NCBI RefSeq assembly: GCF_004010195.1
Contig: NC_057749.1
Span: 7,797,936-7,833,988, forward strand
Reading direction: 5' to 3'
Source: Chiloscyllium plagiosum
Lineage: Eukaryota
DNA: 36,053 bases
Position 1 is the first letter of the stretch. Every line of letters begins with the position of its first letter. The notes under the pieces are model-generated. The model made no database searches, was not told the DNA's origin, and saw only the letters and a program-made list of their open reading frames with translations. Made by a program: the position numbers and the translations under genes. Of the stretch, positions 2,372-36,053 are shown in pieces.

Positions 2372-2497
2372 TGGAGGTGCCGGTGTTGGACTGGGATGTA
2401 CAAAGTACAACCACCTGATGAAGGAGCAGTGCTCCAAAAGCTAGTGCTTCCAAATAAACCTGTTGGACTATTACCTGGTGTTGTGTGATTTTAACTA
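2372..2497 (+). mobile_element. Short PLE-related terminal unit with hammerhead-like motif, inserted in the CA tract
   Basis: CAC-CTGATGA-A-GGAGC-agt-GCTCC-aAAA-G-CTA-GTG, followed by 'cttccaaataaacctgttggac'. The left part 'gtgttggactggg' is the reverse complement of the tail 'cccagtccaaca' seen in the related copy near 31905. Confidence 0.7.
2412..2446 (+). ncRNA. Minimal hammerhead ribozyme motif (G12>A mutated), predicted CUA cleavage triplet
   Basis: Stem I CAC/GTG, core CTGATGA at 2415-2421, stem II GGAGC/GCTCC, GAAA box reads AAAA, palindromic AGCT stem III. Confidence 0.65.
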
Positions 2498-3102
2498 ACA
2501 TACACATATAACCCATGTACACATACATCCCATATAAACACACACACACACACACCATATATCCACACACCCTCCCCCTCACACACACACCACATACACC
2601 CTATATATATACACACCCCATATACACACCCACATACATGCTCATACACACACACCATATACACACATGCCCCATAGACATACCATACTTCATGTACACA
2701 CACACTCCCATATACATACACACCCACACACACACACCATATATATACACCCCATATACATACGCACATCACAAACACCTATATATACACACACTCCATA
2801 TACACATCCACCCACACACTTCATACACACACACAATATAAAAACACACCATATACACATATGCACGCACACCACATACATACATGCCCCACACATATAC
2901 ATATACACCATGTACACAAAGCCCCCCCAAATGCGCACACACCCACACACCATAAACACACAAACACTGTGTATGTACACACACATACTATGTATGCACA
3001 CATGTATACTCACACCTGCCCCATATGCATACACTCATGCAGACACACATGATACACATACCACATACACAAAACATTTACACCAAAACATTTCGGAACA
3101 AA

Positions 3103-3830
3103 AGGAGAGGATTGCAGATGCTGAAGATCAGAGTCAAGAGTGTGGTGCTGGAAAAGCACAGCGGGTCAGGCAGCATCCGAGGAGCAGGAATGAGGCTTGT
3201 GGGCCAGGGGAGCTGAGAGATAAATGGGAGAAGGGTGGGGCTGGGACGAATGAAGCTGAAAATGTAATAGGTAGATGAAGGTGGAGGAGGAGGTGATTGG
3301 TCGGAGTGGAGGGTGGAGCAAATAAATGGGAAAGACGCTGTGAGGAAAAGTGCTGAGTTGGAGGCTTGGGACTGAGATAAGATGGAGGGGGAGGGGAATG
3401 GGGAAACTGGTGGAATCCACATTAATCCTGTGTGGTTTCAGGGTCCCAAGGCAGAAGATGAGATGTTCTTCCTCCAGGTGTCAGGTTGGTATGGTTTGGC
3501 AATGGAGGAGGCCCTGAACCTGCATGTCCTTGGTCAAGTGGGATTTCACCAGTTAATGTGAATTTCACCAGTTTCCTCATTTCCCCTCCCCCCCCCATCT
3601 TATCCCAGATCCAACCCTCCAACTCAGCACCACCCTCTTGAACTGTCCTACTTGTCCATCTTCCTTCCTACTCCCCCCCCAGCCCCAAACCCCCCAACCC
3701 TTCCCATTTCTCGCTCATCCCCAGCCCACAAGCCTCATTGCTGATGAAGAGCTTATGCCCGGAACGTCGATCTCCCGCTGCTCGGATGCTGTCTGACCAG
3801 TTGTGCTTTTCCAGCACCACACTCTCGGCA
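3103..3830. mobile_element. PLE 3' remnant in inverted-repeat arrangement (minus copy 3103-3550, plus copy 3553-3830)
   Basis: Minus strand encodes LEEEHLIFCLGTLKPHRINVDSTSF, resembling a PLE GIY-YIG C-terminus (E..I..L.TL.P.G.N). The two arms are diverged reverse complements. Hammerhead-like CTGATGA..GGAACGTC at 3741-3768. Confidence 0.8.
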
Positions 3831-3832
3831 CA

Positions 3833-4120
3833 CAAAGGATTTCCCCTGGTTGTGGAATTGAAAACCAAGGGGCTCAATCTATAAATAAGGGGATGCAACA
3901 CAGGTCCAAGGTGTGTAGAAATTATATCACTGAGAGGGTTGTGAACCTTTGGAATCCTGTACCACAGAAGGCTGTGGGGGATCGATAGATTGGGATAGAT
4001 TTCTGATTGCAAGTAGGTTATGCATGGGTAAAAGGTCTTGAAGTGTTTGAACAGGTTTGATCATATTGAATGGTAGGGTCAGGTTCAATGGGCTGAATAA
4101 CCTACTCCCATTCCTATATC
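3833..4120 (+). mobile_element. CR1 3' fragment
   Basis: RNYITERVVNLWNPVPQKAV (CR1 ORF2 end), then tail 'gggctgaataacctactcccattcctat'. Confidence 0.85.
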
Positions 4121-4134
4121 CCTATCTTCCTACC

Positions 4135-4440
4135 TCTTTTTTAAATTAGTGATCCCTGACCTTAAAACTGCAAGTCCTAGTTTTAGAATCTCTCACAGGA
4201 CGTCATACCCTATCCTCATTTATCCTGTCAAGATCCTTCAGGATCTTGTCTGTTTCAATCAAGTCACATCTTACGCCTCTAGTCTGCAGCAGGTACAAGT
4301 CTAATCCATCCAGCCTTCCTTCCCAAGACACATTCTCATTACAGCTATGAATCTGTAAACCCTCTCAGAACTATCTTCAACATATTTCCATTCTTCCTTA
4401 AATAAGATGATGAACACTGTGCACAGCATTCCAGATATGA
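4135..4440 (-). mobile_element. Decayed CR1 ORF2 fragment
   Basis: Reverse strand gives YLECCAQCSSSYLRKNGNML (cf. LEYCVQFWSPYLRKD) and 'attgaaacagacaagatcctgaaggatcttgacagg'. Confidence 0.75.
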
Positions 4441-4607
4441 AATCATAAAAAATGTTGGAATGATGGTCTTTATCTCAAGGGATTCAGAATTCAAAAATGA
4501 TACTTTAGTTGACAGAGTTTTTAGCAAATAGTGTCAGCTAATGATATCTTAAAAAATGCTCCATTTTTGGCAATGCCTTATTTCAGATGAAATATTAAAC
4601 TGGCGTT

Positions 4608-4775
4608 ACAGAAAGATAGAAACATAGCAAATAGAAGCAAGAAGTCTATTCAGCGCTTATAATCTGCCCTGCCATTCAGCTAATCTTGGCTGAACATCTA
4701 GCTCAGTCCCTTTTTCCTGCTTTTTTCCCCATATTAGCATTAAGAGCCAAATCTGTTTCCTTCTTGAAATCATAT
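4608..4775 (-). mobile_element. CR1 3' tail fragment
   Basis: 'atagaaacatagcaaatagaagcaagaagtctattcagc...gccattcagctaatcttggctga' is a typical antisense CR1 tail. Confidence 0.7.
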
Positions 4776-5400
4776 TTCAGGGTTTCTAAGGAGAATGTGT
4801 ACCTTGAAGGCATCATCAATGATAGCAATCCAAATTAATAAAGCAAGATCATGGACCTACTGCAGGACTTCATCTCGAAAGGCACAACCTTGAAGAGCAA
4901 GTGATGTTACATCAAATTTGTCTAGACGTTGCTGTGCTGGCCTCCGTATTACAAGAAGAAAGGACAGGCATCTGGGAAGGTGTAAAAATGATATACAAGG
5001 ATGTTGGCATCATTGAGACTTTCTAACATTCTAGAAACACTGCACAAGCTGGATCTTATACCTCTAGAAAAGAGAAGGCCATATCTTTGGAACTAACTTT
5101 CTGAACAGGCAACAGAAGCTCAGTAATAGTGGTGACATGGTGGTAATTTCATTGGGATTGTAATCTAAAACCCCATGCTAATTTTTTTAGCAGGGAGGCA
5201 TGTGTTCAAATCCCAACATGGTTGATAGATGAAATTTGAATTCAATAAAAATTAAAAGCTAGCTAAATGGTAACCGTGTAACCACTTAAGATTGTCATTT
5301 AAAAGCCCCCATCTGATTGATTAATGTCCTTTAAGGGAAGGAAATCTTCCATCCTTACTCAATCTGACCTACATGTGACTCTAGACCCACAGCAATGTGA

Positions 5401-5810
5401 AATTAAAAACTGAGAGAGCTGTAATTCTGAGGAAAGGTCACTTGACCCAAAACATTAACTCTGATTTCTCTCCACAGATGCTACCAGACCTGCTGAGCTT
5501 TTAGATTAGATTACTTACAGTGTGGAAACAGGCCCTTCAGCCCAACAAGTCCACACCAACCCTCTGAAGAGCAACTCACCCAGACCCATTCCCCTACACC
5601 TAACACTATGGGCAATTAAGCATGGCCAATTCATCTTTTTTGGACTGCGGGAGAAACCCATGCAGACACAGGGAGAATGTACAAACTCCGCAGAGACAGT
5701 TGCCCGAGGTGGGAATTGAACCCGGGTCTCTGGCGCTGTGAGGCAGTAGTGCAAACCATTGTGCCACCGTGCCGCCCGTAAATTTTCCAGCAACTTTTAT
5801 CTTTGTTTCC
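5401..5810 (+). mobile_element. PLE-related terminal unit with decayed hammerhead motif, itself interrupted by a SINE
   Basis: CTGAGGA (5427-5433)-aa-GGTC-actt-GACCC-aAAAC-aTT-AACT, then 'ctctccacagatgctaccagacctgctgagctttt', resuming as 'ttttccagcaac' after the SINE. Flanked by near-identical CAG(C/T)AATGTG direct repeats. Confidence 0.75.
5503..5777 (-). mobile_element. HE1/V-SINE-like tRNA SINE
   Basis: Minus strand starts GGGCGGCACGGTGGCACAATGG (A box), B box GGGTTCAATTCCC, CR1-like tail ending (TAATC)n. Confidence 0.9.
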
Positions 5811-6413
5811 CTCAGTAATGTGGTTGACTGTTAATACTTATCATCTTTGCAGTTAGGCATGAACAATAGATGCTGGACTAGCCAGTGATGACCTCATCCC
5901 ATGAATGAATGAAAAGGGATCTTTGAAGTTACGAAGTCGGCTGATAGGATAGTTGTTGCTACGCCCGCTAGGAAGTACAGAAACAGGCAACCTAAGATTA
6001 TCAGTCAGGGTTATAATGAGGTTCATTTACGGTTACTGGAACCTACATATTTTCACACACCGGACCCTGTCCTCTGTATGGAAAAAGAGCATGTGCAGGA
6101 ATTACACAATCGTTTGAATTAAATAAAAGTCTAGGGACACTAGTTCCCTCCTGTATTGTCCATAGCAGCACCTCAACCAGTTGGAATCAATTCGGCTTTT
6201 ACATAACAATACGAATTATTCTTCCTTTTAAAAATATGGCATTCTTGCTTCGGTCCTGATAAGTGCAAGCCAAAAGGTTCAACAACATGCCTGTCTTTGT
6301 CAGCTGTCTTCAAGTTCTGTACCACCAAGTGACCAAATGTATTTCCATTTGTGGGGAAACTAAACTTAGCATACATAAACATAAGATTGACACTTATGAT
6401 TGTAATCTAACTA

Positions 6414-6438
6414 ATATATATATATATATATATATATA
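6414..6438. repeat. (TA)n microsatellite
   Basis: Direct reading of the sequence. Confidence 0.95.
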
Positions 6439-6450
6439 ATTCCTGATAGT

Positions 6451-6548
6451 AATTGTTGATGAAGGGCTTATGCCCGAAACGTCGATTCTCCTGCTCCTTG
6501 GATGCTATCTGACTTGCTGTGCTTTTCCAGCACCACACACTCGGCGCT
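6451..6548 (+). mobile_element. PLE terminal fragment with hammerhead-like motif (C3>U)
   Basis: TTGATGA-A-GGGC-ttat-GCCC-GAAA-C-GTC at 6456-6483, then tail 'ctgctccttggatgct..gctgtgcttttccagcaccac'. Confidence 0.8.
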
Positions 6549-6777
6549 GATAAGTTCAATAAAAGATTCAGTAAACCAGTTGCTCCCTGGGCACTGTTAG
6601 AATGTACAACTTGCTATCACATAGAGCAGTAGAAGTGACTACCTTGGGTAGCTTTGAGGAAAGGTTAGCTAAATCATTATGAGACATCATATTGAGATTG
6701 TACAGAATGTTGGTGAGGCCTCTTCAATGGCCGTTACCATTACACCATAATGGTAACTGGTGGTAATGCTGAACATG

Positions 6778-6906
6778 GAGACAGTGAGGTCTGCAGATGC
6801 TGGAGATCAGAGTTGAGGGTGCATTGCTGGAAAAGCACAGCAGGTGAGGCAGCATCCGAGGAGCAGGAAAATTGACGTTTCGGGCCGGAGCCCTTCATCA
6901 GGAATT
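6778..6906 (-). mobile_element. PLE terminal fragment with intact hammerhead core
   Basis: Same tail family as 3103-3200, 16715-16848 and 35930-36053. Minus strand reads CTGATGA-A-GGGC-tccg-GCCC-GAAA-C-GTC. Confidence 0.85.
6871..6906 (-). ncRNA. Minimal type-I hammerhead ribozyme motif with all core nucleotides intact
   Basis: CUGAUGA 6901-6895, stem II GGGC/GCCC with UCCG loop, GAAA 6881-6878, ACGU palindrome, GUC triplet 6876-6874. Stem I is imperfect. Confidence 0.75.
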
Positions 6907-7012
6907 ATATCGAACATGTCTAGTCTGTAGTGTTAGGTAAGATAATTAGTCACTAAAATGGTTTACAGACAATACAAGATAAGCTCCTGCTGACAGGGTC
7001 TAAAGGGCAAAC

Positions 7013-7570
7013 CTTTGAATACAGGAGTTGGGAATTTACAGGACATTGGTGAGGTCTCTTCTGGAATACTGTGTCCAATTCTGCTCACTCTGTTATAGGA
7101 AGGAGGTACTCAAGCTGGAGGGGCTTCAGAAGAGATTTACCAGGAGGTTGCCAGGAATGGAGGGTTTAAGTTATAAAGAAAGGCTAGAGCATAGGAAATT
7201 GAGGGGTGATCTTATAGAGGTTTATAAAATCATGGGGGGTATAGATAAAGTGAATGGCAGATGTCTCTCCCCTCCGGTGGGAAATCTCAAAACTAGGGGG
7301 CATATTTTTAAGGTGAGATGAGAAAGATTTCAAAAGGGCATGAAGGGCAATTTTTTTTTACATAGAGAGTGGTTCATGTGTGGAATGAACTTCCAGAGGA
7401 ACTGGTGAATGCGGGTACAGTTACAATGTTTAATAGACATGAGTACATGAATAAGAAAGGTTTGGAGGGATATGGGCCGAATGCAGGCAGGTGGGACTTG
7501 TTGAGTTTGGGCTTATGGTCAGCATGGACTGGTTGGACCGAAGGGTCTGTTTCTGTGCTGTATGACTCTG
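7013..7570 (+). mobile_element. CR1 (HER1-like) 3' fragment
   Basis: YRTLVRSLLEYCVQFCSLCYRKEVLKLEGLQKRFTRRLPGMEGLSYKERL...GDLIEVYKIM and VHVWNELPEE. Complete 3' tail. Confidence 0.95.
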
Positions 7571-8469
7571 TGGCTCCATGTCAAAATCAGGGATGTAATG
7601 GGAGGAGATTTACGTGGTGGGTAAACACCGATGAGAAGCCTCACTTTGTACTGGAAATGCTTTCCCATTCTGTGACTGTCCTGAAGCCCTGGCAATATGA
7701 AGAATTTCTCCTGGCATCTGGGCCAACATCCTACCAATTAACTGTCCATTTATCAGTGGGAGTGCACAGTACATTGCAGGCACAGAATGTCCTGTTTGCG
7801 TACATGACTCCAGTCACTGCCCTTCATGATCTGTTCATGAGTTTGTGAATGCCTGCCTCAAAAGGCACAAAACAGCTTAATTTGAAAGTCAGTTCTTTGA
7901 GATGAGAGTGGAAACTATGCAACAGCTACTACAATCCAGTGAACATTTAATTTTGAACCACCTTGAGGAGACATTTGAAACATTATTTCTCTTAATGTAG
8001 AATTCCAAACCTCCACTTTCTGAGCCCCTTCAAATTCTGTTTTCGCAGAGGTCCCCATTATTTCTGCGCTGAGGGTGAGGCAGTATATCTTGGATTTCTA
8101 TGTCAACATTGGGGAGCACCCTTCAAATTCACAGATTGGGACAACGCTCTACAATGGTGACTTAGAGACCCAGGTTGTACTGCCTCAGCCTCAGCTCAGG
8201 AATAATGGGTGGCTTGACACTGCGGACAAGAGTGTAACATTAATGATCACGTGTTCACTTTTTCGATTCTCTATGGAGTAAATTGCATTTCAGGTTGACG
8301 TATGACGTACCAGTAAAAGTCTAAGCAGATACCAACGCAAACAAAACAAAGTACTTTAAAACAGAGAAGAGGCAAAAAAAGGTCTATCAGAGTGTCATGA
8401 CCTCTGATCCTGAAAACGGGTTGCCTGCAGAGCCTTTGAATATTTTCAAGGGATAGATTCTTCTTCAAG

Positions 8470-8735
8470 TATAGAATCCCTCAAGTGCGGGAACACGGCA
8501 TTTGCCCATACCAAACCTATGAAGAGCATCCCAAACCCCGAGCCTCTCCCTGCAGCCCTGCACTTTCCATGGCCAATCCACCTGGCCTGCACATCTTTGG
8601 ACTGTTGGAGGGAACCCATACTAACACGGGGAGAATGTGCAAAGTCCACACAGACAGTTGCCCAAAGGTGGGATTGAACCTAGGTGCCTGGCACTGTGAG
8701 GCAGCAGTGCTAACCACTGAGCCACAGAGCTGCCC
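8470..8735 (-). mobile_element. HE1/V-SINE-like SINE, diverged
   Basis: Minus GGGCAGCTCTGTGGCTCAGTGGTTAGCACTGCTGCCTCACAG, B box GGTTCAATCCC. Confidence 0.9.
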
Positions 8736-8737
8736 TT

Positions 8738-10862: not shown

Positions 10863-12987
10863 CTAGTGACTACAAAACACATGGAAAAGCACACATTGAC
10901 AGAGTAACTCAAATGTCGTTTTGAGGGAACACACTATTGTCAACAATGTGTATGCTAAGTCTTTCTTGCATTTGTCTGAACGCAGTTGCCTCTGTTAACA
11001 TAATCCGTAGAAAGTTGTATGCAAAGACTGCTCTGTCACAATATCGTTGCAGAACTTGGACAACTGGGGGGAGCGGTGGTCAATGTAATGGGAATCTATG
11101 GTTTCTTTCCAGTCATGTGAACATCTTGTACATCAAGAATCACCAGCAGATCATGAGCGATTTGCTAACTTATTTCAAAATATTAAGTTTCCTTTAAAAT
11201 AGAGAAAAGCAAAATTCAGATGAATGCTCCAATAGATCCATTAGTGTCTGATGGAGCTGTTTCAGGGCTTGGGGGATTTAATCTCTTTTGGTTTTGCCCT
11301 ACTTAAAAAAAGTCTCAGAATATTCTTTTTCAGCAGATATTTAAAAGCCATTTATTTAAAATGGGCTGTGTTAAAACAGTGTGCAAATGCATTAAGCAGT
11401 GCTGCACCAGAGGAAATTAAACCCCATAATGGTTCAGATAGCTGTTAATCATACTTAAAAAGATATACAGGTTCAAAGTGCAGTACTGCAGAGTTACTGA
11501 TTCTTCACAGCTGCAGCAGTTCAAAGACAGCAATGTAGTCAATAACCTTTCAGCAATATATCTATAGACTCTCGATAGACAGAGTTAACTATGTAACTGT
11601 AACGTGTGTGAAATTCAGTACGTTTCTGAAATGAACTGGCAGCCTCTAGAAATCAGTTACACAGCACCTCAATATTAAAGCCGTTGTCCAGGAATTACTA
11701 ATTGAAAACAATCATGGCAATTCCAATTATACTGAAAACAGATAATTGGGAATTCAATTACAATTACTGGGTTTCAGCGAAAGTAGCCAATATTGTCACA
11801 AATTACACCCTTATAGTCATTGATTACTACTCAGTTACACCAAAATCTTGACTTGAGTGTTGTTTTTCTTGTGGTTACCTTGAAACACTATTTTGAATCA
11901 TTCTAGCTTGGAATATGGGATTAGCAATTTGAGACAAGAATGCCCTTTCGCAAATCAGATGCATGTGGAAATAGAGCCAGAACATAGACTATATGAAATG
12001 GACAGTTATATTGAGTTCCATTATAATCATTCACACCTGAATGAACAACCATTGGCACGACAAAGAGTATCACAAATTCTCCATTAACTAGATTCATCCT
12101 AATAAGGGGTGCTCCAGTATAATCTGTTGGGATTGAGAAGGGCTTCTGCTCTCTGTGGCACAGTGGTATTGTCATGAGCCCAGATTTAAACCCTACGTGC
12201 TCATGGCATTTCCCAAATGGGTTGATTAAAATATCTAGAAAAGAGATTCAGTGGCAGTACTCTGCCCCAAATGTTAGCTGGTTGTGGTTGATTCTTAGTT
12301 GAATTTGGAGGGAGCAGAGGAGATGGATATTCAAAACATTTGCTCTTTCTATAATTTGAATTCAAAATGATTTGTCCTTGGGCTGTACTGCTGACATGAA
12401 ATGTACAGTGTGAATTTTAAGAATGTTATGATCGTATTGTGGAAGGTTGTAAGAGTGAAACATGCTGGAGATGAAGTGAATTTTATTGCACTTCTCGAAA
12501 ATTTCAAGAAGTGCACTGTAATGCATTTTAGTAAATGTTATGAATAAATTATCTTTTTACAAAAAAAATAAATTGAGTTTAACTGAAAATGAGTTTGAGT
12601 TAATGTGACATGTGACAATTAAAGAGGAAATCAATTTCAAAAGTTGGAGAATAAAATATTCTTGAATAGCAAAATGGAGAATAAGGGTGAATATAACTGA
12701 GCACTTAGAATTTTCAGAACTCGGAACACAACACTTAGATTTCTTTTCAGGGCCATGTGTCATTCACAACATGCAAATCTACATGACAAGTTGTAACTTT
12801 TCACTGAAACAGTAAGAGATGTAAACTTTAAATAATACTATTATTTCAGTCAAAGTTATCAATTGCAAATGCTTGTGGATCATCAGCCCTTGTGTCATTT
12901 TCTTGCCTAGCTCAATCTCATAAACAGCAGGGAGATAAATGGGAAAGAAATGAAGGAGCAGTCCTGGCCCCAACATCAAACGATTTA

Positions 12988-13192
12988 AAACCAAAAGAGA
13001 AAATGCTGGAAAATCTCAGCAGGTCTGGCAGCATCTGTAAGGAGAGAAAACTGACAAAGCTTTGACAAAGGGTCAGTTAGACTCGAAACGTCAGCTCTTT
13101 TCTCTCCTTACAGATGCTGCCAGACCTGCTGAGATTTTCCAGCATTTTCTCTTTTGGTTTCAGATTCCAGCATCCGCAGTAATTTGCTTTTA
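12988..13192 (+). mobile_element. Short PLE-related hairpin element: perfect 63-bp inverted arms around a hammerhead-like motif
   Basis: 12988-13050 is the exact reverse complement of 13098-13160. Centre reads AGCT-TTGACAA-A-GGGTC-agtta-GACTC-GAAA-C-GTC-AGCT. ACCAAAAGA direct repeat at 12990-12998 and 13192-13200. Confidence 0.85.
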
Positions 13193-13494
13193 CCAAAAGA
13201 TTTATTTGAGAGTCTTTGAAATCAAACTTGGAAGCTTAAATATCTCTCTACAGAGACAACTGGGGCCCTAGTTAAACAGCTTAAATGAAGCCCCAGGCAA
13301 TATGGAACCCACAAGCAAAAATCTGAGCCAAGCTTTTTAGCTGCTTTTGGATCTGTTGGTTTAGACTATAGTGCAACTCTATATATATCCAGCAGAGGGA
13401 GTGTACTCATGGTGGTGATGCTGTCACTTCTTATGTGAACTACTAACAACGACATTTCTTGATGGCTTGAAAAATAATTCTGCTAGGAGACACC

Positions 13495-16362: not shown

Positions 16363-16950
16363 ATGGTAGAGCAGATGATGTGCTGTAACTGCAGAGTTTG
16401 GGAGCCTCTCGTTGCTTGTGTGACCCAAGGCAAACGCATCTGCAGTACCTGGCAGTTGCAGGAACTTGATCTCAGGGGTATTGACTTGGAGGCTGAGCTA
16501 GACATTGCAACACATCAGGCCGAAGAAAATTACCTCAGCACTTCCAACTCAGCACCATCCTCTTGTCCTGTCCTCCCTGTCCATCTTCCTTCCCACCTAT
16601 CCACTCCACCTTCCCCACCATCACCCCCACCTTCATTTACCTATTGCATTCTCAACTATCCTCCCCCCAGCCCCACTCCCCTCTCATTTATCTCTCAGCC
16701 TCCTCGGATCACCCCTTCATTCCTGATGAAGAGCTTATTCTTGAAATGTCAACTCCTCTGTTCCTCAGATGCTACCTGACTGGCTGTGCTTTTCCAGCAC
16801 CACACTCTTCGACTCTGATCTCCAGCATCAGCAGTGTTCACTTTCTCCCACTTTATTCCAATAGCTATTCATGTCCCTGAGGGTAGAGTCTTCTGATTTG
16901 GTCAATTATCAAAGATAAGAAGGCATGACTGCGAGTGAGGCAGGTAAGGA
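16363..16950 (+). mobile_element. CR1 ORF1 N-terminal remnant (zinc finger plus leucine zipper), interrupted by a PLE tail
   Basis: MVEQMMCCNCRVWE...ICSTWQLQELDLRGIDLEAEL resembles the CxxC..CxxC plus coiled-coil start of fish and shark CR1 ORF1. Continuation 'gactgcgagtgaggcaggta' near 16930. Confidence 0.7.
16540..16848 (+). mobile_element. PLE 3' tail with decayed hammerhead motif
   Basis: Homologous to 3620-3830. CTGATGA at 16723-16729, then 'agagcttattcttGAAAtGTC'. Confidence 0.8.
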
Positions 16951-17714: not shown

Positions 17715-18342
17715 AAGACAGATGGAACATCGGCCTTTATTTCAAAGGGAACAGAACATAAAAATGAGGAGGTTTTGCTAAGACCATACAAGGCACTAAT
17801 GAGCCCACAGTTGGAATACTGTGAACAGTTTTGGGTTCCTTATTGAAGTGGAGATACATTGGCATTGGAGGTAGTCCAGAGAAGGTTCACTAGGCATGGA
17901 AAGACTGTCTGATGAGGAGAGATTAAATAGATTGGATTTGTATTCATTGAAATATAGAAGAATGAGAGGTGACCTTATTGAAACATACAAGCATCTTAAA
18001 GGACTTGACAGGGTAGCTGTCAAAAGGTAGCTTCCCCTTGTGGGAGAGTATAGGGCCAGAGGTCACAGTCTCTGAATAAGGGGTCACACATTTAAGGCAG
18101 AGATGGGAAGGAATTTCTTCTCTCAGAAATGGCAATCCATGAAATTCTATACCACAGAGGGCTATTGAGGATGGGTCATCAAGTATATTCAAGTTGAGCT
18201 AGACAGAGTTTTAATCAGTAAGGGAATAAAGGGTTGTCGGGAAAGTAGAGTTGAAGATTATCAGATCAACCATGATCTCATTGATGAATGGAACAGTCTC
18301 ATTTGGCTGAATGGCTTATATCTGCTCTTACATCTCATGGTG
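17715..18342 (+). mobile_element. CR1 3' fragment
   Basis: 'ttggaatactgtgaacagttttgg', 'agaagaatgagaggtgaccttattgaaacatacaag', and tail. Confidence 0.92.
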
Positions 18343-20125: not shown

Positions 20126-20434
20126 AAGAATCTCTACGGTGCAGAGAGGCCATTCGAGTCTGCACTGACACTCAATGAGCATCCAACCCAAACCCTGTCA
20201 CCATCATTTCCCATGTCTAATCCACCCTGCTTACACATCCCTGTGACACTGTAGACAAGTTTAACATGGCCAATCAATCTGACTGACACATCTTTGGATT
20301 GTGGGAAGAAACCCACACAGACACAGGTAAAACACGTGCAGGCTTCACACAGGCAGTCACCCGAGGCTGGAATCAAACCCACGTCCCTAGCGCTGCATGG
20401 TAGCAGTGCTAACCACGGAGCCACCATGCCACCC
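20126..20434 (-). mobile_element. HE1/V-SINE-like SINE, diverged
   Basis: Minus GGGTGGCATGGTGGCTCCGTGGTTAGCACTGCT. Body homologous to the other copies. Confidence 0.88.
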
Positions 20435-21888: not shown

Positions 21889-22201
21889 TTTAGAAATTAC
21901 AGTGTGGAAACAAGCCCTTCGGCCCAACAAGTCCACACTGGCCCTCCGAAGAGCAACCCACCCAGACCCATTAACCTACAATAACCCCTTCAGCTAACAC
22001 CATGGGCAATTTAGCATGGCCAATTCACCTAACCTGCACATTTTTGGACTGTGGGAGGAAACCGGAGCACCCAGAGGAAACCCACGCAGATATGGGGAGA
22101 TTGTGCAAACTCCACACAGACAGTTGCCTGAGGCAGGAATTGAACCTGGGTCTCTGGCACTGTGAGGCAGCAGTGCTAACTGCTGTGCCAATGTGCCACC
22201 C
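21889..22201 (-). mobile_element. HE1/V-SINE-like SINE
   Basis: B box GGTTCAATTCC, V-domain-like 'ggtttcctctgggtgctccggtttcctcccacagtccaaaa', CR1-like tail. Confidence 0.92.
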
Positions 22202-22784
22202 ACTTGCCAACATCACATTATTTATAATCCCCCTGCCCTTCTGTAGCTGTTGTTCTTCTGGAGCTCAAAAGTACCTTTCAGAGTTTCCAAAGTTACTTGT
22301 GTTCAGCTTCAAACACTGTGCACTCATTACAATGAGTAACTTGCAGAGACTCAAGGACAGTGTGAACTGTTCACTGCCCATTAGAAAAGCCAGGCTTTGT
22401 TCTGTAATTTCAAGTTCAGACGGAGTCTCCAAGTGCAGATGATCTGAAGAACCTTTACCTCAAAACTGATGAAAGCTGAGAACAACTCCAAAAATAAAGA
22501 CTTATGTATTTTTATAAACACATAGAACTAACAAATGTAAAACTTACATTCACCTACACGTTGTATCAGTCTTTTTTAGATTCATTTATTACTTAGTCAG
22601 ACACCCAGATGACTCTTATAATATTATAAAATTATAAAACCTCTTGTGTTTCATTGTAGTTGTGTTCCTGACTGTAGATCATGTTAACTGTTCCAGCCTT
22701 TTTTTTTAATGTGACACTGAGGCAAGTCACATTTGGTTAATCAAACATAAGACTGCAATGAGCTGTGACCCACCTAGATCGGAA

Positions 22785-24084: not shown

Positions 24085-24417
24085 AGATTAGATTAGATTA
24101 CATTACATTACAGTGTGGAAACAGGCCCTTCAGCCCAACAAGTCCACACCGACCCGCCGAAGCGCAACCCACCCATACCCCTACCCCTACCCCATATAGT
24201 TACACTTACCCCACACTACAGGCAATTTAGTATGGCCAATTCACCTGACCTGCACATCTTTGGACTGTGGGAGGAAACCGGAGCACCCGGAGGAAACCCA
24301 CGCAGACATGGGGAGAACGTGCAAACTCCACACAGTCAGTCACCTGAGGCGGGAATTGAACCCAGGTCTCTGGCGCTGTGAGGCAGCAGTGCTAACCACT
24401 GTGCCACCGTGCCGCCC
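24085..24417 (-). mobile_element. HE1/V-SINE-like SINE, young full-length copy with TSD
   Basis: A box TGGCACAGTGG, B box GGTTCAATTCCC, many intact CpGs, (TAATC)n/(TAATG)n tail. ATGAGA duplicated at 24082-24087 and 24418-24423. Confidence 0.95.
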
Positions 24418-24456
24418 ATGAGACCCTCTTTTTGCCTTGAAATATATGTAAGTAGT

Positions 24457-25490
24457 TAACGAGTTTTGTGAAGATTTGTAGCTTCAGGTTGAGGTTCTAG
24501 GTATATGTTTGATCACTGAGCTGGAAGGTTCATTTTCAGACATTTCATCACCAACCGAGGTAACATCTTCAGTGAGCCTCAGGATGAAGCATTAGTGGTA
24601 TCGCCTGCTTTCTATTTATTTGTTTAGATTTCTTTGGGTCAGTGATGTCACTTCCTGTGGTGATGCCATTTCCTTTGGGGATGTCATTTACTGTTTTTTT
24701 TTAAATTGGATCCAAGTCAATGGGTTATTGATAGAGTTCTGTTTGGAATGCAATGCTTCTAGGAATTCTCATGTGTGTCTCTGTTTGACTTGTCCTAGGA
24801 TGGATGTGTTGTCCCAGTCGAAGTGGTGTCCTTCCTCATCTATATGTGAGGATACTAGTGAGAGTGGGTCATGTCTTTTTTGGCTGGCAGATGTTCGTGT
24901 ATCCTGGTAGCTAGTTTTCTGCCTATTTGTCCAATGTAGTGTTTGTTACAGTTCTTGCAGAGTATTTTGTAAATGACGTTAGTTTTGTTTGTTGTCTATG
25001 TAGGATTTTTCATGTTCATAAGCTGCTGTTTTAGTGTGTTGGTGGGTTTGTGGGCTACCATGATGCCACGGAGTCTGAGTAGTCTGGCAGTCATTTCCGA
25101 GATGTCTTTGATGCAGGGGAGAGTGGCTCGGGTTTCCGAATGTACTTTGTCTGCTTGTTGGTGTTTGTTGCTGAGAAATCGGTGGACTGTGTTCATTGGG
25201 TACCAGTTCTTTTTGAATACACTGTTTAGGTGATTTTCCTCTGCTCTGTATAGTTTCTTTGTGCTGGAGTGTGTGGTGGCTCATTGAAATAATGTTTTAA
25301 TGCAGTTTGTTTGTAGATGTTGGGATGTTTGCTTTTGTAGTTCAGTATTTGGTCAGTATGTGTTGTTTTCCTGTAGATGCTGGTTTAAGTTCCCCATTGG
25401 CTGCTCGCTCTACTGTGACATCTAGGAATGGCAGTTTGTTGATGTTTTCCTCCTCTTTAGTGAATTTTCTGCCAGTAAGGGTATTATTGA
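24457..25490 (-). mobile_element. Penelope-like retroelement: RT C-terminus, GIY-YIG endonuclease and 3' terminal region, decayed
   Basis: Minus-strand pieces KFTKEEENINKLPFLDVTV, IYRKTTHTDQILNYKSKHP, TLPCIKDISEMTARLLR, NVIYKILCKNCNKHYIGQIGRKLATRIHEH (VIY..YIG). Stops and frameshifts present. Confidence 0.95.
24536..24575 (-). ncRNA. Minimal hammerhead ribozyme motif downstream of the PLE GIY-YIG domain
   Basis: TCA-CTGAAGA (24572-24566)-T-GTTACC-tcggtt-GGTGAT-GAAA-T-GTC-TGA. Stem I TCA/TGA. Confidence 0.75.
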
Positions 25491-27218
25491 AGTATTATGT
25501 AAGCAGTGTTCTGCATGAGTAGGAAATGCTGTTGTTTGCAAATGCAGGGAATGACAAATCCTAATGTTTTGTTCCTTTTTATCTGCAAAGACTGTATAGA
25601 ACTGTTTTAGTACCTTGTATACATGCATTAAGATTTTTAAAAGAATAATGTATTTTTTACAATAAAGCAAAGCTCTGATCAAGGGCAAATGGAGATTGTT
25701 CATAGTGACTGACTCACACAGCAATGGAGTTGACTAAATTTGACAAAATTTGATGAAATGTTTCTCTGTCCACAGGTGTTGCTAGACCTGGTGAGTTTCT
25801 CCTGTTTTCCCTGTGCTTGCCACAGAATTGGAGTATGGCCCTTAGAGTTTACAGTAAGATGTCCTCACTGATCATCCATTGTGAAGAGTTACGTTCAATA
25901 AGTCGTATTAATATTCACTCAGATGAGCGTAGGTCTCATCTTAGTACATAGAGATCATCCTTACTTCTTGTAACAGTAATGGGAAAGATTGTTTGAGCGT
26001 CCAGGGCTGGGGTCGGACTATTATGCAAGTAAATGTTCTGCATGATTAGGATCAGGCTATTTACTTTAGGACCATGAATGACTGGAATAGCCAACCCTTG
26101 AACGATTTTATCAATTCCCTGCATATTAAATTGCAAACATGTTTATTCGTGGACAAATAAGTACAGAATGGTCACGGGGTTAAGTAGGAAGGTGTTTCAG
26201 TTTTTATTATAGAATTAATGTTGATAGAAGTACCAAGGCATTGCCGAGATGGTCCTCCATTCCGACAGAGAATGAACTTAGAGCAGAGTAACTGACTCCC
26301 AATTACTCGATTGGGAATAATTGCTAAATTGTTTGTCTAACCCGGCACACAAAGCTGGCAAATGGCCTGATAATGGTCCCTTTGCAATTCACCTGCCCTA
26401 GCTGGATTGGCCTTTCGAGATCTGACAGAGCAGTTAGGGAGGGTAACGAAATATTGGGCTTTCTCCGCAATGCTGTGTCCAAAGAAAGAGTTAAAAAATA
26501 GTCAATGCCGTTTTGGATCTCATTTGTGAGGGTCCTGGAGAACCTGTGCAGTGTAGCAATGCAGCTGCTCAAAGTGCGAATGACTAGGACGTGGCATTCC
26601 AGTAATTACTATGCCCAATTGAGATTTTTTTTTCCCTGAAGAAGAAAGAAACAATAAGGGATGCTGTTCTCGGCAGAGTGCGTACTGGGCCCTTCATGGG
26701 AAAATGGGTCAAACAAAATATATTATCATAGCACAGTGCTATCATCTGTGGAAAGGACAAAACTGTAATGGATTATGAAGTGAAATTGTAACTGCAGACA
26801 TGTATTCAGGATTTTAGAATTAATAGCATTCTATTTGCATTTCATCATTTTTAACATTAATGACCTTGAAGGCTGGAGCAGATGATTTCAGGCCTTACTG
26901 CATCATTTGGCACAGTGCCCCATCAGATCCAACTATTCATGGGCAGGTCTTTGCCTCAGCTACCAAGTCTCCAGAAGAGCCAAGAATAACAACTGTTGGC
27001 AGAGGCTGTTATGGATATGCTCTCATGTTGTATGGCTTCTGATGTTCGGAGCCAATGTGTTATTGAGTGACAGTTTAACACACTGCAGTGCCCTGGACTG
27101 CAATCTCTTGGGCACACCTGTTCATGTCGTCCTAAAGTTTGCTCTGGGTCAGAGTGTATATGATAAAAGGGATAAGTAATCTTTTAGCAGACGGACATAG
27201 ACTTTGCTAATGAGCAAT

Positions 27219-27755
27219 AGAAATTGCTGGAAAAGTTCAGCAGATCTGACTGTGCATAATCCCTACAGTGTGGAAGCAGGCCATTCAGCCCATCGAGTCA
27301 TGCCAACCCTCTGAAGAGCATCTCATCCACACCCACTCCCTACCCTATACCTGCATTTTCTATGGCTAATCCATCTAACCGCCAGATCCCTGGATACATG
27401 GCTAATTTAGCATGGCCAATCCACCTAACCTGCACAACTTTGGACTGTGGTGGGAAACCAGAGCACCCAGAGGAAACCCACGCAGACACGGGAAGAATGT
27501 GTAAACTCCACACAGACAGTTGCATGAGGTTGGACTTGAACCCAGGTTTCTGGAGCCGTGAGACAGAAGTGCTAGCCACCATGCCGCCCATGGAGAGAAA
27601 CAGCAAAGTTAACGTTTCAGCTCCAGTTCTGAAGAAAAGTCACTGAACCCAAAATATTAACTCTACTTTCTCTCCAGGATGCTGCTAGATCTGCTGAGAT
27701 TTTCCAGCAATTTCTGTTTTTGTTTCTGATTTCCTGAATTCACAGTTCTTTTGGT
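27219..27755 (+). mobile_element. PLE-related hairpin element with decayed hammerhead, interrupted by a SINE
   Basis: Left arm 'agaaattgctggaaaagttcagcagatct' is complementary to right arm 'agatctgctgagattttccagcaatttct'. AGTT-CTGAAGA (27629-27635)...aAAA-tATT-AACT. Confidence 0.75.
27256..27588 (-). mobile_element. HE1/V-SINE-like SINE
   Basis: Minus GGGCGGCATGGTGGCTAGCAC, B box GGGTTCAAGTCC. Internal partial duplication of 'atggc(t/c)aatcca(t/c)ctaacc'. Confidence 0.9.
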
Positions 27756-28674
27756 CTACAGCCTTGACTATAGTTATTAGAAATCTGTGTATAATATCTT
27801 TTCAGATATTCTCTTCTTGATTTATAAACGCATTTGGAATATTACCACTCTGTCTATCTTCACCACAAGTGCACTAATATTTATTTATTAAGAAATGCAA
27901 TTTAACGATGAAATCTGTCAGCCACCTCGGCTTCTTGTTCAGCTCCCCCAGTGTGTATAATGTCTCCGAGTACACTACAATAGCCACTGTGCCATTGGGT
28001 GAAGAAGGGGAATCAAGTGGGATAAATCCACTTGATTAATCTGTCAGTAAAGAGTTGCATTTTCTTCAAAGAATGACAGAATCTTGTTGCTCAGAATGAG
28101 GCCATTCCACCATCTTGTCTGCGGTGGCTCTCTGAAAGTGACATCCAGAGACTCACACCTCTGCTCCTTCCAATTGTCCTATAAACTTGTCCTTTTCACA
28201 TATGTGTCCAAGCTCATTCCTGCCACCCTGTCAGGATGTATAAGGCAATGGATATGAAAAGGTTATTCTGGGAGTTGAACAGAAACTGCACCCAATCAGA
28301 TGTAACACAGCCACTCGGTGGAACATTCGGTAGTCTTGAGTAGCTTGAATAAACAGTGGTTGGAGTCTGGCCCGGTCTTCTCATGGAGACACAGGTATCT
28401 TACCTCGCTCTTGCAATAGAAGAGTTAATGTAACCTATAGTTATTCAGATGCAATAAACCGCATCTGTTTTCTCAGACAAGAGCTGCTTATGCTGAGATT
28501 TATTCATGGTCCATCCTCCACCACCAGCTACTAAAAAGCTCCTAGACCAGCCTAGGAAGAAAGATTGATGGTAGTGTCTTACCCAAAACACAGAGAGTCA
28601 GTACTGAGGCATCACCCGATCATTGTAACACATTTCAGCTCACATATGGCTCTCTGTGTTAAATAAAGTCCCTT

Positions 28675-29286: not shown

Positions 29287-29582
29287 GATTAGATTAGATT
29301 CCCCACAGTATGAAAACAGGCTCTTCGGCCCAAAAGTCCACACTGGCCCTCCGAAGAGCAACCCACCCAGACCCATTCCCCTACATTTACCCCTGACTAA
29401 CACTACGGGCAATTTAGCATGGCCAATTCAGCTGGCCTGCACATCTTTGGACAGTGGGAGGAAACCCACGCAGACACGGGAGAGTGTGCAAACCCCACAC
29501 AGACATTTGCCCAAGGCTAGAATTGGACCCTGGTTCCTGGCGCTGTAAGGCAGCAGTGCTAACCACTGAGCCACCGTGCTTC
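29287..29582 (-). mobile_element. HE1/V-SINE-like SINE with TSD
   Basis: A box TGGCTCAGTGG, (TAATC)n tail. CATGAT duplicated at 29284-29289 and 29583-29588. Confidence 0.92.
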
Positions 29583-30596
29583 CATGATGGTGAACAATGA
29601 AAAATTTACAGAAAGAGAAAGGGGGACGTAAAGAAACCTACAGGTTTTTAATTTTTGTTTGAACTCAGGATGAACCAAAACAGATTGTGCCGTATTCCCT
29701 GCAGTCATTGAATAATACTAATATTAAAAGAACTCTTATTTCTTGTTTGTTGAGAGATTAGTGGTGGAAAATACCATCTGGTGCAGTGTAATTACTTAGA
29801 AAGGTAAACTGCTTGGATGTGTTATATGAAGATTGAAAAATTAGCTTTCCATTATTAGCTCTATGGATTTTTCAGTCTGGTTGTAGTGTACCAACCCCAC
29901 ATCTAATTAGAAGGGTCATGCCTTTCCCAATGATGTTTAAATTTGCTCACTTATTTCAACAAAGCAGGAGGAATTCTTTTCCCCATATGCTTTTTTAAAA
30001 AGTTCTGTCGTATGCAATACATCTAGAGTATCAGCTACAGCATGGGTCCATTCTTTCTCCATTTATTGCCCAGCCAATCTTAAGTAGTAACTAACTTAAT
30101 GCTTTGGGGTTGAAGGGTTTAAGTTGTGGCTGAGAGATGAATCACACAAATGTATCAGAGCCTGGGAATTGCTCCTGGCCGTGTTAGTGAGGGAACACCT
30201 CCCACATTGCCTCTGACATTTTCGTTTCACTAGCACTGGTGCTAATTTGTTTCTTTTTACAGGGTTAATACACTAAAACAGAAGGCAAATGATTATCATG
30301 TTGTCAACTGCATGCTGATAAAACCAACAGTGAATTCTAGCTTTTTATTCTTAGACAGTGCCCTTTCAGTCTAGTCAGATGACTTTCTTCCATTACGAGT
30401 TATTCACAGCTATCTCAATTCTAGCTTCCAATAAACATAATTACACTGCCAGAAATGATCCCAAATTGGATTATGAGGAGCTATTAATTTTAATGCGTAG
30501 AAAATCACCAGCTTCACACTTTCAAATTCCCACAATTGCCTTTCCCAGGAGCACGTCATCATGGAAGCAGTCCTGTTACATGAAGAGCTAACAGGA

Positions 30597-30803: not shown

Positions 30804-30829
30804 AGGCACATTTACAATAGCAAAGCAGA

Positions 30830-31834: not shown

Positions 31835-31922
31835 CTTCACCCAATGAAGAAGCAATGGTCAGAAAACTTGTGGTTTCAAATAAATCTGTGTATCGTGTGA
31901 CTTCCCCAGTCCAACATCCACA
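31835..31922 (+). mobile_element. Degenerate copy of the 2372-2497 PLE/hammerhead unit
   Basis: CAC-ccaATGA-agaagcaatggtca-GAAA-a-CTT-GTG, then 'tttcaaataaatctg...cccagtccaaca'. Confidence 0.55.
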
Positions 31923-31924
31923 TT

Positions 31925-34569: not shown

Positions 34570-34712
34570 TATAGATATTTTTTTGCTAAGCAAAAGCATT
34601 AGAGGATATGGGCCAAAGGCTGCTGAACAGAGTTAGGCCTCAGATCAGGCAAGATCTCATTGAATGGCAGAACAGGCTTGAGGGGCTGAATGGCCTACTC
34701 CTGTTCCATGTT
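34570..34712 (+). mobile_element. CR1 3' tail
   Basis: 'gatctcattgaatggcagaacaggcttgaggggctgaatggcctactcctgttcc'. Confidence 0.85.
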
Positions 34713-34882
34713 CAATGTCAACGGCAAAGATTGGGAGTAATGGGTAGGATTTTATGGCCTCTCTCATGGCATTTTTTGGGAGGGGGCAAAGGGCAGTTAA
34801 TTGGGAAGGACAGTGACATATGAGCATTGCTCTAGCTTCCTGTCTTCACCAAAATTAAATCTGAGGAGGAGGGGGAGCGGCC

Positions 34883-35006
34883 ATACTGAGGGAGTGCTGC
34901 ACTGATGGTGGTGCCTTCTTTCAGATGAGTAAAGTGAGATCTTATCCTCTCTCCTCAAGTGGATGCCAAAAATTCCACAGCCCTGTTGGAAGATGATCAG
35001 TAGAGT
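34883..35006 (+). mobile_element. DeuSINE central (Deu) domain fragment
   Basis: 'tactgagggagtgctgcactgatggtggtgccttctttcagatgag...ctctcctcaagtggatg' matches the Deu-domain region as I recall it. Confidence 0.7.
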
Positions 35007-35021
35007 CGTGCACAGTGGCGA

Positions 35022-35355
35022 TGTATAAAATCATGCGGGGTATAGGTAATTAATGATGGGTGTCTTTTCCCTAGCGGGGACATTTTTAAGGTGAGAGGAA
35101 AGAGATTTAAACAAGGCAGGTGGGGCAATTTTTTTACACAGTGGGTAATTCACATGTGGAATGAACTTCCCGAGGAAGTGGTGGATGTGGCCACAGTTAC
35201 AACATTTAAAAGACACTTGGATAAGTGCCTGAATAGGAAAGGTTTGGAGGGATACTAGCCAGGTGCATGCAGGTGGGATTAGTTTTGTTTGGGATTATAT
35301 TTGGCATGGACTCCTTGGACCAAAGGGTCAGTTTCCGTGCTTTGTGACTCTATGA
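35022..35355 (+). mobile_element. CR1 (HER1-like) 3' fragment
   Basis: Highly similar to 7220-7570, including the tail. Confidence 0.92.
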
Positions 35356-35719
35356 TATCTTCCATTGGTATTTTGGTATTCTTATACTGTTTGTGATAAT
35401 AACTGACACGAGTTTAAAGCTCCTCTTTTCTTACCTGCTCCCTTGGTTGCATGCAACAAGATTAATTTATACATGGTCTCATCCCTCATGGACTACCTTT
35501 CTCCCAAAACCAAAGGGAGAATTTCAGTGGAGTGTTTGTATACCTTCAGCATATAAACACTTCCTCCACACCCTACTGAAATTTCAACTGTGCTAGAATC
35601 TTAAAGCCTTAAATCCATTGACTTTGGTATGGAAGTTTGTGCTGAGCCATGTTATGAGCAAGTTTGGATTCAAAAATCAAAATGTCTGACCCTTTGTTTC
35701 AGAACTTGCTCTCAAACCT

Positions 35720-35925
35720 TGAAGGAAGTGTCGCAGGTAGATAGGATGGTGAAGAAGGTGTTTAGTATGCTTTCCTTTATTGGTCAGAGTATTGAGTGCA
35801 GGAGTTGGGAGGTCATGTTGAGGCTGTACAGGACATTGATTCGGCCACTTTTGGAATACTGTGTGCAATTCTGGTCTCCTTCCTATCAGAAGGATGTTGT
35901 GAAACTTGGAAGGGTTCAGAAAAAA
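35720..35925 (+). mobile_element. CR1 ORF2 fragment
   Basis: QVDRMVKKVFSMLSFIGQSIECRSWEVMLRLYRTLIRPLLEYCVQFWSPSYQKDVVKL. Confidence 0.95.
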
Positions 35926-35929
35926 CTTA

Positions 35930-36053
35930 GAGGAGAAAGTGAGGTCTGCAGATGCTGGAGATCAGAGATGGAAATGTGTTGCTGGAAAAGCGCAGCAGGT
36001 CAGGCAGCATCTAGGGAACAGGAGAATCGACGTCTCGGGCATTAGCCCTTCTT
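35930..36053 (-). mobile_element. PLE terminal fragment inserted in CR1, hammerhead-like motif cut by the window end
   Basis: Homologous to 6778-6906. Minus strand reads ..AAGA-A-GGGC-taat-GCCC-GAgA-C-GTC-GATT. Confidence 0.8.

Follow-up and report, generated by a model that had tools for sequence, protein, structure and literature searches.

We analyzed a 36,053-nucleotide stretch of the genome of the cartilaginous fish Chiloscyllium plagiosum (contig NC_057749.1, positions 7,797,936 to 7,833,988; the whole stretch is called the window here), in which a reading of the letters alone (the sequence-only reading) had listed 11 sites resembling the minimal hammerhead ribozymes of Penelope-like elements (PLEs). 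Ten of these sites are complete, and one is cut by the window end. Our analyses indicate that the sites are very probably relics of minimal type-I hammerheads that lie ∼90 to 125 nt upstream of the 3′ ends of PLE insertions, in the pseudo-long terminal repeat (pseudo-LTR) region, and that they stem from at least four PLE families.

Families were defined by BLAST of each site against the window, which resolved four of them, in agreement with the four to five proposed previously: family A (3741+, 6456+, 6901−, 16723+, and the window end−), family B (5427+, 13062+, and 27629+), family C (2412+ and 31838+), and family D (24572−), without relatives in the window. A sixth family-A copy without the hammerhead block was found at 3107 to 3552(−), and a strongly degenerate 12th relic, belonging to family B, at 25733 to 25828. 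The family-A copies in the window are 77 to 87% identical to each other, and a tail block common to families A and B has 19 invariant columns across nine aligned sequences. The four families occupy ∼2.4 kb, roughly 6 to 7% of the window, and their copies are as follows.

2369 to 2497, both strands: family C; forward piece at 2412 to 2497(+), with C3 at 2415 and H17 at 2443, and inverted 3′-end piece at 2369 to 2411(−)
3107 to 3552, minus strand: family A, inverted partner; endonuclease C-terminus remnant at 3382 to 3552, C/T-rich 3′ untranslated region (UTR), and long-form tail at 3107 to 3189
Junction 3189/3190, minus strand: same inverted partner; hammerhead block of 33 to 34 nt absent
3553 to 3829, plus strand: family A, forward partner; end of the open reading frame (ORF) remnant at 3552 to 3635, 3′ UTR, hammerhead relic at 3741 to 3768 (A13>G; 10.2-11.2 mismatch), and short tail ending at 3829
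5400 to 5502, plus strand: family B module; hammerhead relic at 5427 to 5456 (G12>A, G16.2>A, and G>A at 10.1), with the tail cut at 5502 by a different repeat
6445 to 6551, plus strand: family A short module; hammerhead relic at 6456 to 6483 (C3>T) and short 3′ end, abutting (AT)12.5 at 6414 to 6438
6777 to 6911, minus strand: family A short module; hammerhead at 6901 to 6874 and long tail ending at 6777
12983 to 13200, both strands: family B inverted pair; 5′-truncated inverted copy at 12983 to 13050(−) without the tail extension and forward copy from ∼13054(+) with it
16543 to 16848, plus strand: family A; 180 nt of 3′ UTR, hammerhead relic at 16723 to 16750 (boxes intact, 3′ strand of stem II decayed, ACGU changed to AUGU), and long tail
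24425 to 25700, minus strand: family D, a 5′-truncated PLE; ORF remnant at ∼25700 to 24691 with stop codons and frameshifts, hammerhead at 24572 to 24539, and tail to ∼24425
25733 to 25828, plus strand: family B, degenerate relic, missing from the earlier list of sites
27592 to 27770, both strands: family B; inverted fragment at 27592 to 27620(−) and forward copy from 27621(+), with relic at 27629 to 27658 (G12>A; helix I AGUU/AACU)
31838 to 31920, plus strand: family C, a degenerate copy that keeps G12 but carries U4>C, G5>A, and a decayed stem II
35932 to 36053, minus strand: family A, with the CUGANGA box interrupted by the end of the window; A14>G and long tail ending at 35932

Hammerhead architecture and core decay

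All 11 sites have the same layout, consisting of one strand of helix I, CTGANGA, one extra nucleotide, stem II, GAAA, a 2-nt filler that completes a 4-nt palindrome, TH, and the other strand of helix I. The sequence-only reading had the coordinates, strands, and layout right at every site, and the stem sequences it quoted are likewise accurate. Stem II differs by family (GGGC/GCCC, GGGUC/GACCC or GACUC, GGAGC/GCUCC, and GUUACC/GGUGAU), and helix I, which comprises 3 to 4 bp in families B, C, and D, differs even inside family B (AGUU/AACU in one copy versus AGCU/AGCU in another). The stems nonetheless keep pairing in register, as had been claimed. We counted pairs in place and with the 3′ partner slid by 1 to 3 positions, scripting the counts from coordinates (a MAFFT alignment shifts family C by one column relative to the structure), and 38 of 47 stem II cells are paired in place versus 5 to 21 of 47 when slid, with corresponding values of 21 of 30 versus 7 to 9 of 30 for the first three pairs of helix I.

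Several further features are also retained. An unpaired nucleotide follows A9 at all 10 complete sites and in the cut copy, and U16.1 and a non-G position 17 are present at all 10 complete sites. The 10.1-11.1 pair is G-C at 6 of 10 sites and G-U at 2 of 10; the families keep G10.1-C11.1 except in copies with evident substitutions at 10.1 or 11.1, family D being G-U. The 15.1-16.1 tetramer is ACGU at four sites and AGCU at one, and the other five differ from these palindromes by one or two substitutions. Three of these features, the unpaired nucleotide after A9, G10.1-C11.1, and the palindromic tetramer, are described as descriptor-independent hallmarks of PLE hammerheads (Cervera and de la Pena 2014, PMC4209133), and their retention upholds the earlier assignment of the motifs to minimal type-I hammerheads of the PLE kind.

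The initial count of about 10 hammerheads stands for the layout but not for intact cores. The CUGANGA box is exact at 7 of the 10 complete sites (mutated at 6456, 13062, and 31838) and the GAAA box (G12 A13 A14 A15.1) at 6, with G12>A in three and A13>G in one; both boxes are exact at three sites (6901−, 16723+, and 24572−). The site at 31838 (U4>C and G5>A) had been singled out as the one degenerate motif, but core substitutions are also present at 6456 (C3>T), 13062 (C3>T and G8>A), 3741 (A13>G), 2412, 5427, and 27629 (G12>A in each, every time at a CpG), and in the copy at the window end (A14>G). Many of the core substitutions are located at CpG sites, and at every core position the canonical base is found in most of the five family-A copies. 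The family-C site at 2412 combines CUGAUGA, a bulged A, GGAGC/GCUCC, and the AGCU palindrome with helix I CAC/GUG around its substituted G12. In the family-B relic at 13062 to 13092(+), the substitutions have spared the 3′ half, GAAACGUC, and helix I (AGCU/AGCU).

The best-preserved motifs were compared with chance expectation under two descriptors. The strict minimal-hammerhead descriptor (exact boxes, stem II of at least 3 bp, palindromic 15.1-16.1, and U-H) is passed by 1 of the 10 complete sites, 6901−, against 0.13 expected, and 35 of 300 simulations reach one match. The relaxed descriptor (exact boxes, stem II of at least 4 bp, any two-letter filler, and U16.1-H17) is passed by two, 6901− and 24572−, against 0.033 expected, and none of 1,000 first-order Markov simulations reaches two; with helix I of at least 3 bp added, one match remains versus 0.002 expected. 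The motif at 6901 to 6874(−), with CUGAUGA, a bulged A, GGGC/GCCC, GAAA, the ACGU palindrome, and GUC, is the sole fully intact minimal hammerhead of the window, while that at 24572 to 24539(−) has CUGAAGA, a bulged U, a 6-bp stem II with two G-U pairs, GAAA, AUGU, GUC, and helix I UCA/UGA. The recurrence of the sites is real, since they belong to repeat families. Judged by their sequence, two motifs in the window are near-intact and eight to ten are mutated, and almost all copies are point-mutated fossils that would not be expected to cleave.

Coding remnants and insertion architecture

Family A retains part of an endonuclease. We compared the remnant at 3382 to 3552(−) exhaustively with 1.84 billion proteins, taking as the query a 57-aa piece in which one TGA was read as X, and recovered 21 proteins at E ≤ 0.001; among the six that were looked up, five belong to a whale-shark protein set and one to little skate. 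A follow-up search for longer proteins yielded P0025, whose C-terminus is 54% identical to the remnant over 52 residues (pairwise E = 1e-15) and which carries RVT_1 at residues 1 to 121 and GIY-YIG at residues 355 to 432 (23.2 bits; cutoff, 22.6). P0027 and P0028 have the same spacing, with a partial N-terminal RVT_1 and GIY-YIG ∼230 residues on. Another protein, P0024 (RVT_1 plus weak GIY-YIG), was dropped as proof of a fusion of reverse transcriptase (RT) and endonuclease because its gene model may be a chimera and because its RT part looks, by its motifs, like that of a long interspersed nuclear element (LINE). The first 104-aa family-A frame gave no protein homologues and no Pfam match. 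An RT with a C-terminal GIY-YIG endonuclease is described as the defining ORF of endonuclease-containing (EN+) PLEs (Craig 2021, PMC8557442). Both P0025 and P0027 have CX4CX2C immediately before the GIY motif; the same work assigns linkers of this type to the clades Neptune and Nematis, which makes a Neptune-like identity of family A probable.

The family-A hammerhead follows the ORF remnant by ∼190 to 250 nt. Three family-A frames through the hammerhead region end at the same TGA (3773 to 3790, 16760 to 16775, and 3170 to 3160 on the minus strand), which lies in the conserved GCCTGACC of the tail. The AUG within CUGAUGA opens a frame of just 17 to 18 codons in three family-A copies, and family B lacks this AUG.

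In family D, three-frame translation gives a broken ORF of ∼1 kb that ends at 24691, with the hammerhead 119 nt beyond. A tblastn search places the GIY-YIG N-terminal motif at 24995 to 24867(−) with E values of 1e-5 to 3e-9 in small search spaces; the same piece matches the Pfam GIY-YIG model at E = 0.0028, and further upstream a weak match in collinear order (E = 0.036) corresponds to the RT-downstream part. We interpret family D as the 3′ terminus of another PLE, a more divergent one. That the site at 24572 might be a chance match, having no relatives in the window, was considered and overturned by the descriptor simulation and the upstream GIY-YIG remnant. Just upstream of this hammerhead, inside the end of the ORF remnant, an 18-nt unit is repeated 2.9 times (24642 to 24694); over 29 nt its complementarity to the family-D stem II region is 72%, which could reflect an inverted fragment or mere coincidence.

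Families A and D are thus 3′ ends of coding PLEs, whereas purely noncoding derivatives had been envisaged. For these two the proposed PLE origin is borne out directly, by the endonuclease C-terminus and the GIY-YIG remnant, respectively, although the window contains coding remnants only and no PLE RT core. For family B, a putative sister family of A, the link to PLEs is through the tail shared with A and the insertion architecture, and for family C, a more tentative member of the group, through insertion architecture alone.

This architecture is distinctive. Inverted, 5′-truncated partners adjoin forward copies at 3107 to 3829, 12983 to 13200, 27592 to 27770, and 2369 to 2497, and the arms of the pair at 12983 to 13200 are 97% complementary. 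Measured from C3, the 3′ ends of family A fall at +125/126 in four copies (16848, 6777, 35932, and 3107) and at +89/+96 in two (3829 and 6551), a difference of ∼30 to 35 nt between long and short forms, and the family-B pair at 12983 to 13200 has an extension of ∼30 nt on its forward arm only. Across the insertions, the distance from hammerhead to insertion end is 90 to 126 nt. Inverted 5′-truncated copies and a 30- to 40-bp tail at one end are given as signatures of PLEs (Craig 2021, PMC8557442), and the PLE tail has been traced to two adjacent internal RT start sites (Frangieh 2024, PMC11167929). Microsatellites abut the insertions, as with (AT)12.5 at 6414 to 6438 and a CA-rich stretch at 2181 to 3002; the family-C insertion at 2369 to 2497 is embedded in the latter kind of sequence, and the surrounding CA-rich, imperfect microsatellite-like stretch extends over ∼900 nt (2160 to 3063) with many overlapping Tandem Repeats Finder rows. 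A further piece of the inverted family-B copy in the 27592 to 27770 arrangement is located at 27216 to 27260(−).

Three side observations concern these insertions. First, the inverted family-A copy at 3107 to 3552(−) lacks precisely a 33- to 34-nt segment that starts immediately before C3 and reaches slightly beyond the cleavage site, with both flanks continuing; this was seen in one copy. Second, in the module at 6777 to 6911(−) and other A and B copies, the conserved GAUGCUG of the tail is predicted to pair with CAGCAUC of the ∼35-nt extension around the short-form 3′ end (z = −2.27 for the 135-nt fold); A and B copies have both segments, and the predicted stem-loop could be used for RT initiation. 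Third, the family-B inverted pair forms a near-perfect 143-nt hairpin at 13003 to 13145 with subthreshold matches to four microRNA models on both strands. We rejected these matches as microRNA genes because they are repeat artifacts of the inverted pair, and hammerhead relics thereby explain spurious microRNA-like hairpins in annotation.

Abundance of the short module

To gauge abundance, contigs of three DNA runs from three related organisms were aligned to positions 3080 to 6960 at a likeness of at least 80%, and word depth was summed over all look-alike contigs in bins 130 nt wide; these sums are not copy numbers and are meaningful only to an order of magnitude. In run X1, the summed depth is 4.6 to 7.1 million over tail-dominated bins (of which bin 5420 to 5549 also takes in the start of a neighboring SINE-like repeat, where SINE denotes a short interspersed nuclear element), ∼3 million over the hammerhead segment as estimated from partial bins, and a flat 0.08 to 0.41 million over the family-A upstream 3′ UTR and ORF end; unique bins have 23 to 144, and the single-copy contig depth is 20.7. 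The profile is alike in the two other organisms. In summed depth across the three, the hammerhead-plus-tail module reaches ∼10^5 times single-copy depth and 10 to 60 times its upstream part, so the earlier description of a very abundant short module is well founded.

The loose ends of the contigs are also informative, as their consensuses give ...CCTCATTCC for the letters just before the box in all three organisms, and therefore a C-G pair at 2.1-1.1 in family A. At site 3741, 32 nt of the element and the adjoining unique flank are covered by a contig of organism B (∼4.4% differences; the organism is ∼4 to 5% diverged), so this insertion predates the split from organism B; the overlap is borderline at 6456 (29 to 36 nt), and for organism C at 3741 it is 28 nt only. 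One scan of metagenome contigs with the conserved tail block returned 0 matches. The 20 sequencing runs that contain the stretch include none recorded as RNA, and a single-cell poly(A) RNA run (X22) contributed 0 reads, a result of no weight either way.

Other repeats share the window with the hammerhead modules. A SINE-like repeat is present in seven copies (5515 to 5777, 8528 to 8735, 20260 to 20434, 21897 to 22202, 24108 to 24418, 27393 to 27598, and 29302 to 29584), two of which abut family-B modules; its summed depth of 3 to 3.7 million is near that of the hammerhead module, and it is presumably a SINE of the Deu-domain type. By this measure, the hammerhead-plus-tail module would be roughly equal in abundance to the main SINE-like family of the same stretch. 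The spacer between convergent family-A copies at 6590 to 6719 is moderately repetitive (depth, ∼10,900 versus ∼20 for single-copy sequence). Fragments of a LINE ORF2 C-terminus and 3′ end are located at 170 to 1421, 7019 to 7572, 17768 to 17841, 35071 to 35354, and 35605 to 35929, with a weak RVT_1 match at 170 to 526 (E = 0.0033); judging by their motifs, the repeated C-terminal coding blocks look CR1-like.

Explanations, known systems, and significance

If the sites are PLE hammerhead relics, the RNA of master copies would be expected to self-cleave after GUC in families A and D, after GUC or GUU in family B, and after CUA in family C. By analogy with PLE hammerheads for which dimer cleavage is reported (Lunse et al. 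2017, via the review PMC6765202), monomers would cleave poorly, and cleavage would improve once the ACGU or AGCU tetramers of two ribozymes have joined to form a helix III of four pairs. Most genomic copies are short modules of a hammerhead and ∼100 nt, generated by extreme 5′ truncation or else by the retroposition of transcripts that comprise the pseudo-LTR only.

A number of findings weigh against the reading of the sites as PLE hammerhead relics. The bare two-box pattern (CTGANGA, a gap of 4 to 30 nt, and GAAA) is not enriched in the window, with 7 matches versus 3.99 expected and 10 of 100 shuffles reaching 7. The hammerhead model search proposed earlier returned nothing in the window, as Rfam gave 0 hammerhead matches at gathering score and none among 17 weak matches at E ≤ 10; the Rfam hammerhead models miss this hammerhead class. 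A fully canonical hammerhead is found at the single site 6901−, and in family A helix I is weak, never exceeding 2 contiguous pairs in register. In the predicted monomer fold of the intact copy at 6901−, UGAUG pairs with CGUCA and hides the core and cleavage site, which is consistent with poor monomer activity. Position 12 is A in three of the five family B and C copies, and the consensus of these families is not fixable from 2 to 3 window copies; CpG decay is a plausible explanation, because G is kept at 13062, at 31838, and in the inverted family-B fragment at 27592 to 27620, which reads ...GAAACGTT... on its own strand. Families B and C have no coding remnant within the window, and the tail block common to A and B inflates the depth step between tail and upstream sequence. 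Finally, hammerhead mutants of Poseidon from Anolis are reported to have inserted normally in vitro, with no RNA ends at the cut site (PMC11167929), so the role of the ribozyme in PLE biology is itself unsettled.

The abundant units might also be distinct nonautonomous, SINE-like retroposons made of the pseudo-LTR only (3 to 11 nt, the hammerhead, and a tail of 90 to 125 nt), copied from short transcripts by a PLE RT that would initiate at its internal start sites, rather than random truncations. We take this proposal seriously, although on balance we lean against it. Six of nine forward copies begin 3 to 11 nt upstream of C3 (6456, 6901−, 5427, 27629, 2412, and 31838, as limits of homology within the window), but at 27629, as at 13062, the apparent 5′ end is the junction with an inverted copy. 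Depth upstream of family A is flat at 0.08 to 0.41 million over 500 nt and then 4.6 to 5.7 million in the module, a step with no gradient, but with 130-nt bins and a tail block common to A and B this step is partly a sum over families. Likewise, contigs aligning from 6457 share about the last 9 upstream letters (...CCTCATTCC) and agree at 0.38 to 0.39 across 30 letters in the three organisms, but copies with differing upstream sequence stop every alignment at that point, and the evidence from loose ends is indirect. Animal retrozymes have, moreover, been argued to be nonautonomous PLE derivatives (2026 preprint, 10.64898/2026.07.22.740005).

It is very unlikely that the sites are non-LTR retrozymes, i.e., tandem hammerhead repeats that are transcribed, self-cleaved, and circularized. 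Type-I retrozymes with a mean consensus of 363 bp are reported from one chondrichthyan genome (2026 preprint, 10.64898/2026.07.22.740005), and the palindromic helix III implies that two copies are needed for cleavage. However, none of the 18 Tandem Repeats Finder rows is a hammerhead-containing array in the window, and the retrozyme-like label given earlier does not apply there. Neighbors on the same strand belong to different families, and the close pairs are on opposite strands and cannot provide two sense ribozymes per transcript. No direct head-to-tail tandem (pseudo-LTR) of any family was found in the window either, although all copies are truncated and this says little on master copies.

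Hardly credible at all is the suggestion that the sites are LINE-dependent SINEs or unrelated repeats with a coincidental hammerhead-like layout; although the window is filled with presumed CR1-like fragments of LINEs and copies of another SINE-like family, and Rfam recognizes no hammerhead in it, one architecture recurs across four families, including features unneeded for a box match, the relaxed descriptor has a chance expectation of 0.033 (0.002 with helix I of at least 3 bp), the family-A queries match none of the LINE fragments of the window, GIY-YIG ORF remnants are directly upstream of the A and D motifs, and no RNA polymerase III (pol III) head was found to support the earlier SINE-like label in its pol III sense, since ARAGORN gave 0 tRNA genes and the 17 weak Rfam matches include no tRNA, 5S, or 7SL.

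As relics of PLE hammerheads, the motifs closely resemble the minimal hammerheads described from metazoan PLEs (PMC4209133), with which they share type-I topology, essentially no helix III, the palindromic 15.1-16.1 tetramer, the unpaired nucleotide between A9 and 10.1, G10.1-C11.1, a short helix I, the presence of several divergent families in one genome, a predominance of solitary copies, and pairs on opposite strands 100 to 700 bp apart. They differ from that account in host, as no shark or ray is named in its main text; in state, nearly all window copies being mutated, unlike the PLE hammerheads described there; in stem II, which has 4 to 5 bp in families A to C versus 7 to 8 bp in Schistosoma; and in apparent abundance, ∼10^5 depth-equivalents, which are depth sums and not copy numbers, versus ∼4,000 motifs in coelacanth and ∼9,000 in Xenopus.

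The Poseidon element PAc of Anolis carolinensis (PMC11167929) provides the closest parallel in insertion structure, with a hammerhead roughly 110 to 125 nt upstream of the insertion 3′ end, two adjacent 3′ ends that differ by a 30- to 40-nt tail, and an ORF combining RT and GIY-YIG. The PAc ORF, however, begins at hammerhead stem II, whereas the AUG of CUGAUGA in the window opens 17 to 18 codons only, and the relatives of family A have a Cys-rich, Neptune-like linker, unlike PAc; the window elements, moreover, are known from their sequence alone. Animal non-LTR retrozymes (PMC7229834; Li et al. 2026 preprint) similarly have type-I hammerheads in noncoding repeats related to PLE pseudo-LTRs, but they are defined by tandem units, of which the window has none. 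The Sm-alpha and Sj-alpha elements of Schistosoma (review PMC6765202) are likewise short, very abundant, noncoding retroposons with a type-I hammerhead, but there a promoter precedes a canonical, tertiary-stabilized, fast-cleaving hammerhead, whereas here a minimal motif occurs without a pol III head.

We conclude that the hammerhead relics are real, ordinary in kind, and notable in abundance. Hammerhead retrozymes and PLEs have already been reported in one chondrichthyan (2026 preprint, 10.64898/2026.07.22.740005), and our literature search found no report naming shark PLE hammerheads, although cartilaginous fishes may be listed in the supplementary material of Cervera 2014 or the 2026 preprint. 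The kind is therefore already known; new here are a cartilaginous-fish host with coding remnants, four families within 36 kb, and an apparent abundance that, in summed depth, is far above the motif numbers of coelacanth and Xenopus. The association of PLEs with hammerheads now extends to cartilaginous fishes, for which the coding remnants provide direct evidence.

It is doubtful, and in our view rather unlikely, that the dominant form is a self-contained retroposon of ∼100 to 135 nt, comprising a few nucleotides, a minimal hammerhead, and an RT-initiation tail and amplified by the PLE RT to ∼10^5 copies. If this were true, the module would be a PLE-driven analogue of SINEs, hammerhead relics would make up a percent-scale part of elasmobranch genomes, and this would be the largest vertebrate hammerhead population reported. 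There are hints that the short module has discrete ends; if so, it would offer very many independent copies with which to map where PLE reverse transcription starts and stops, and the same data set could reveal whether master copies keep the ribozyme under selection.

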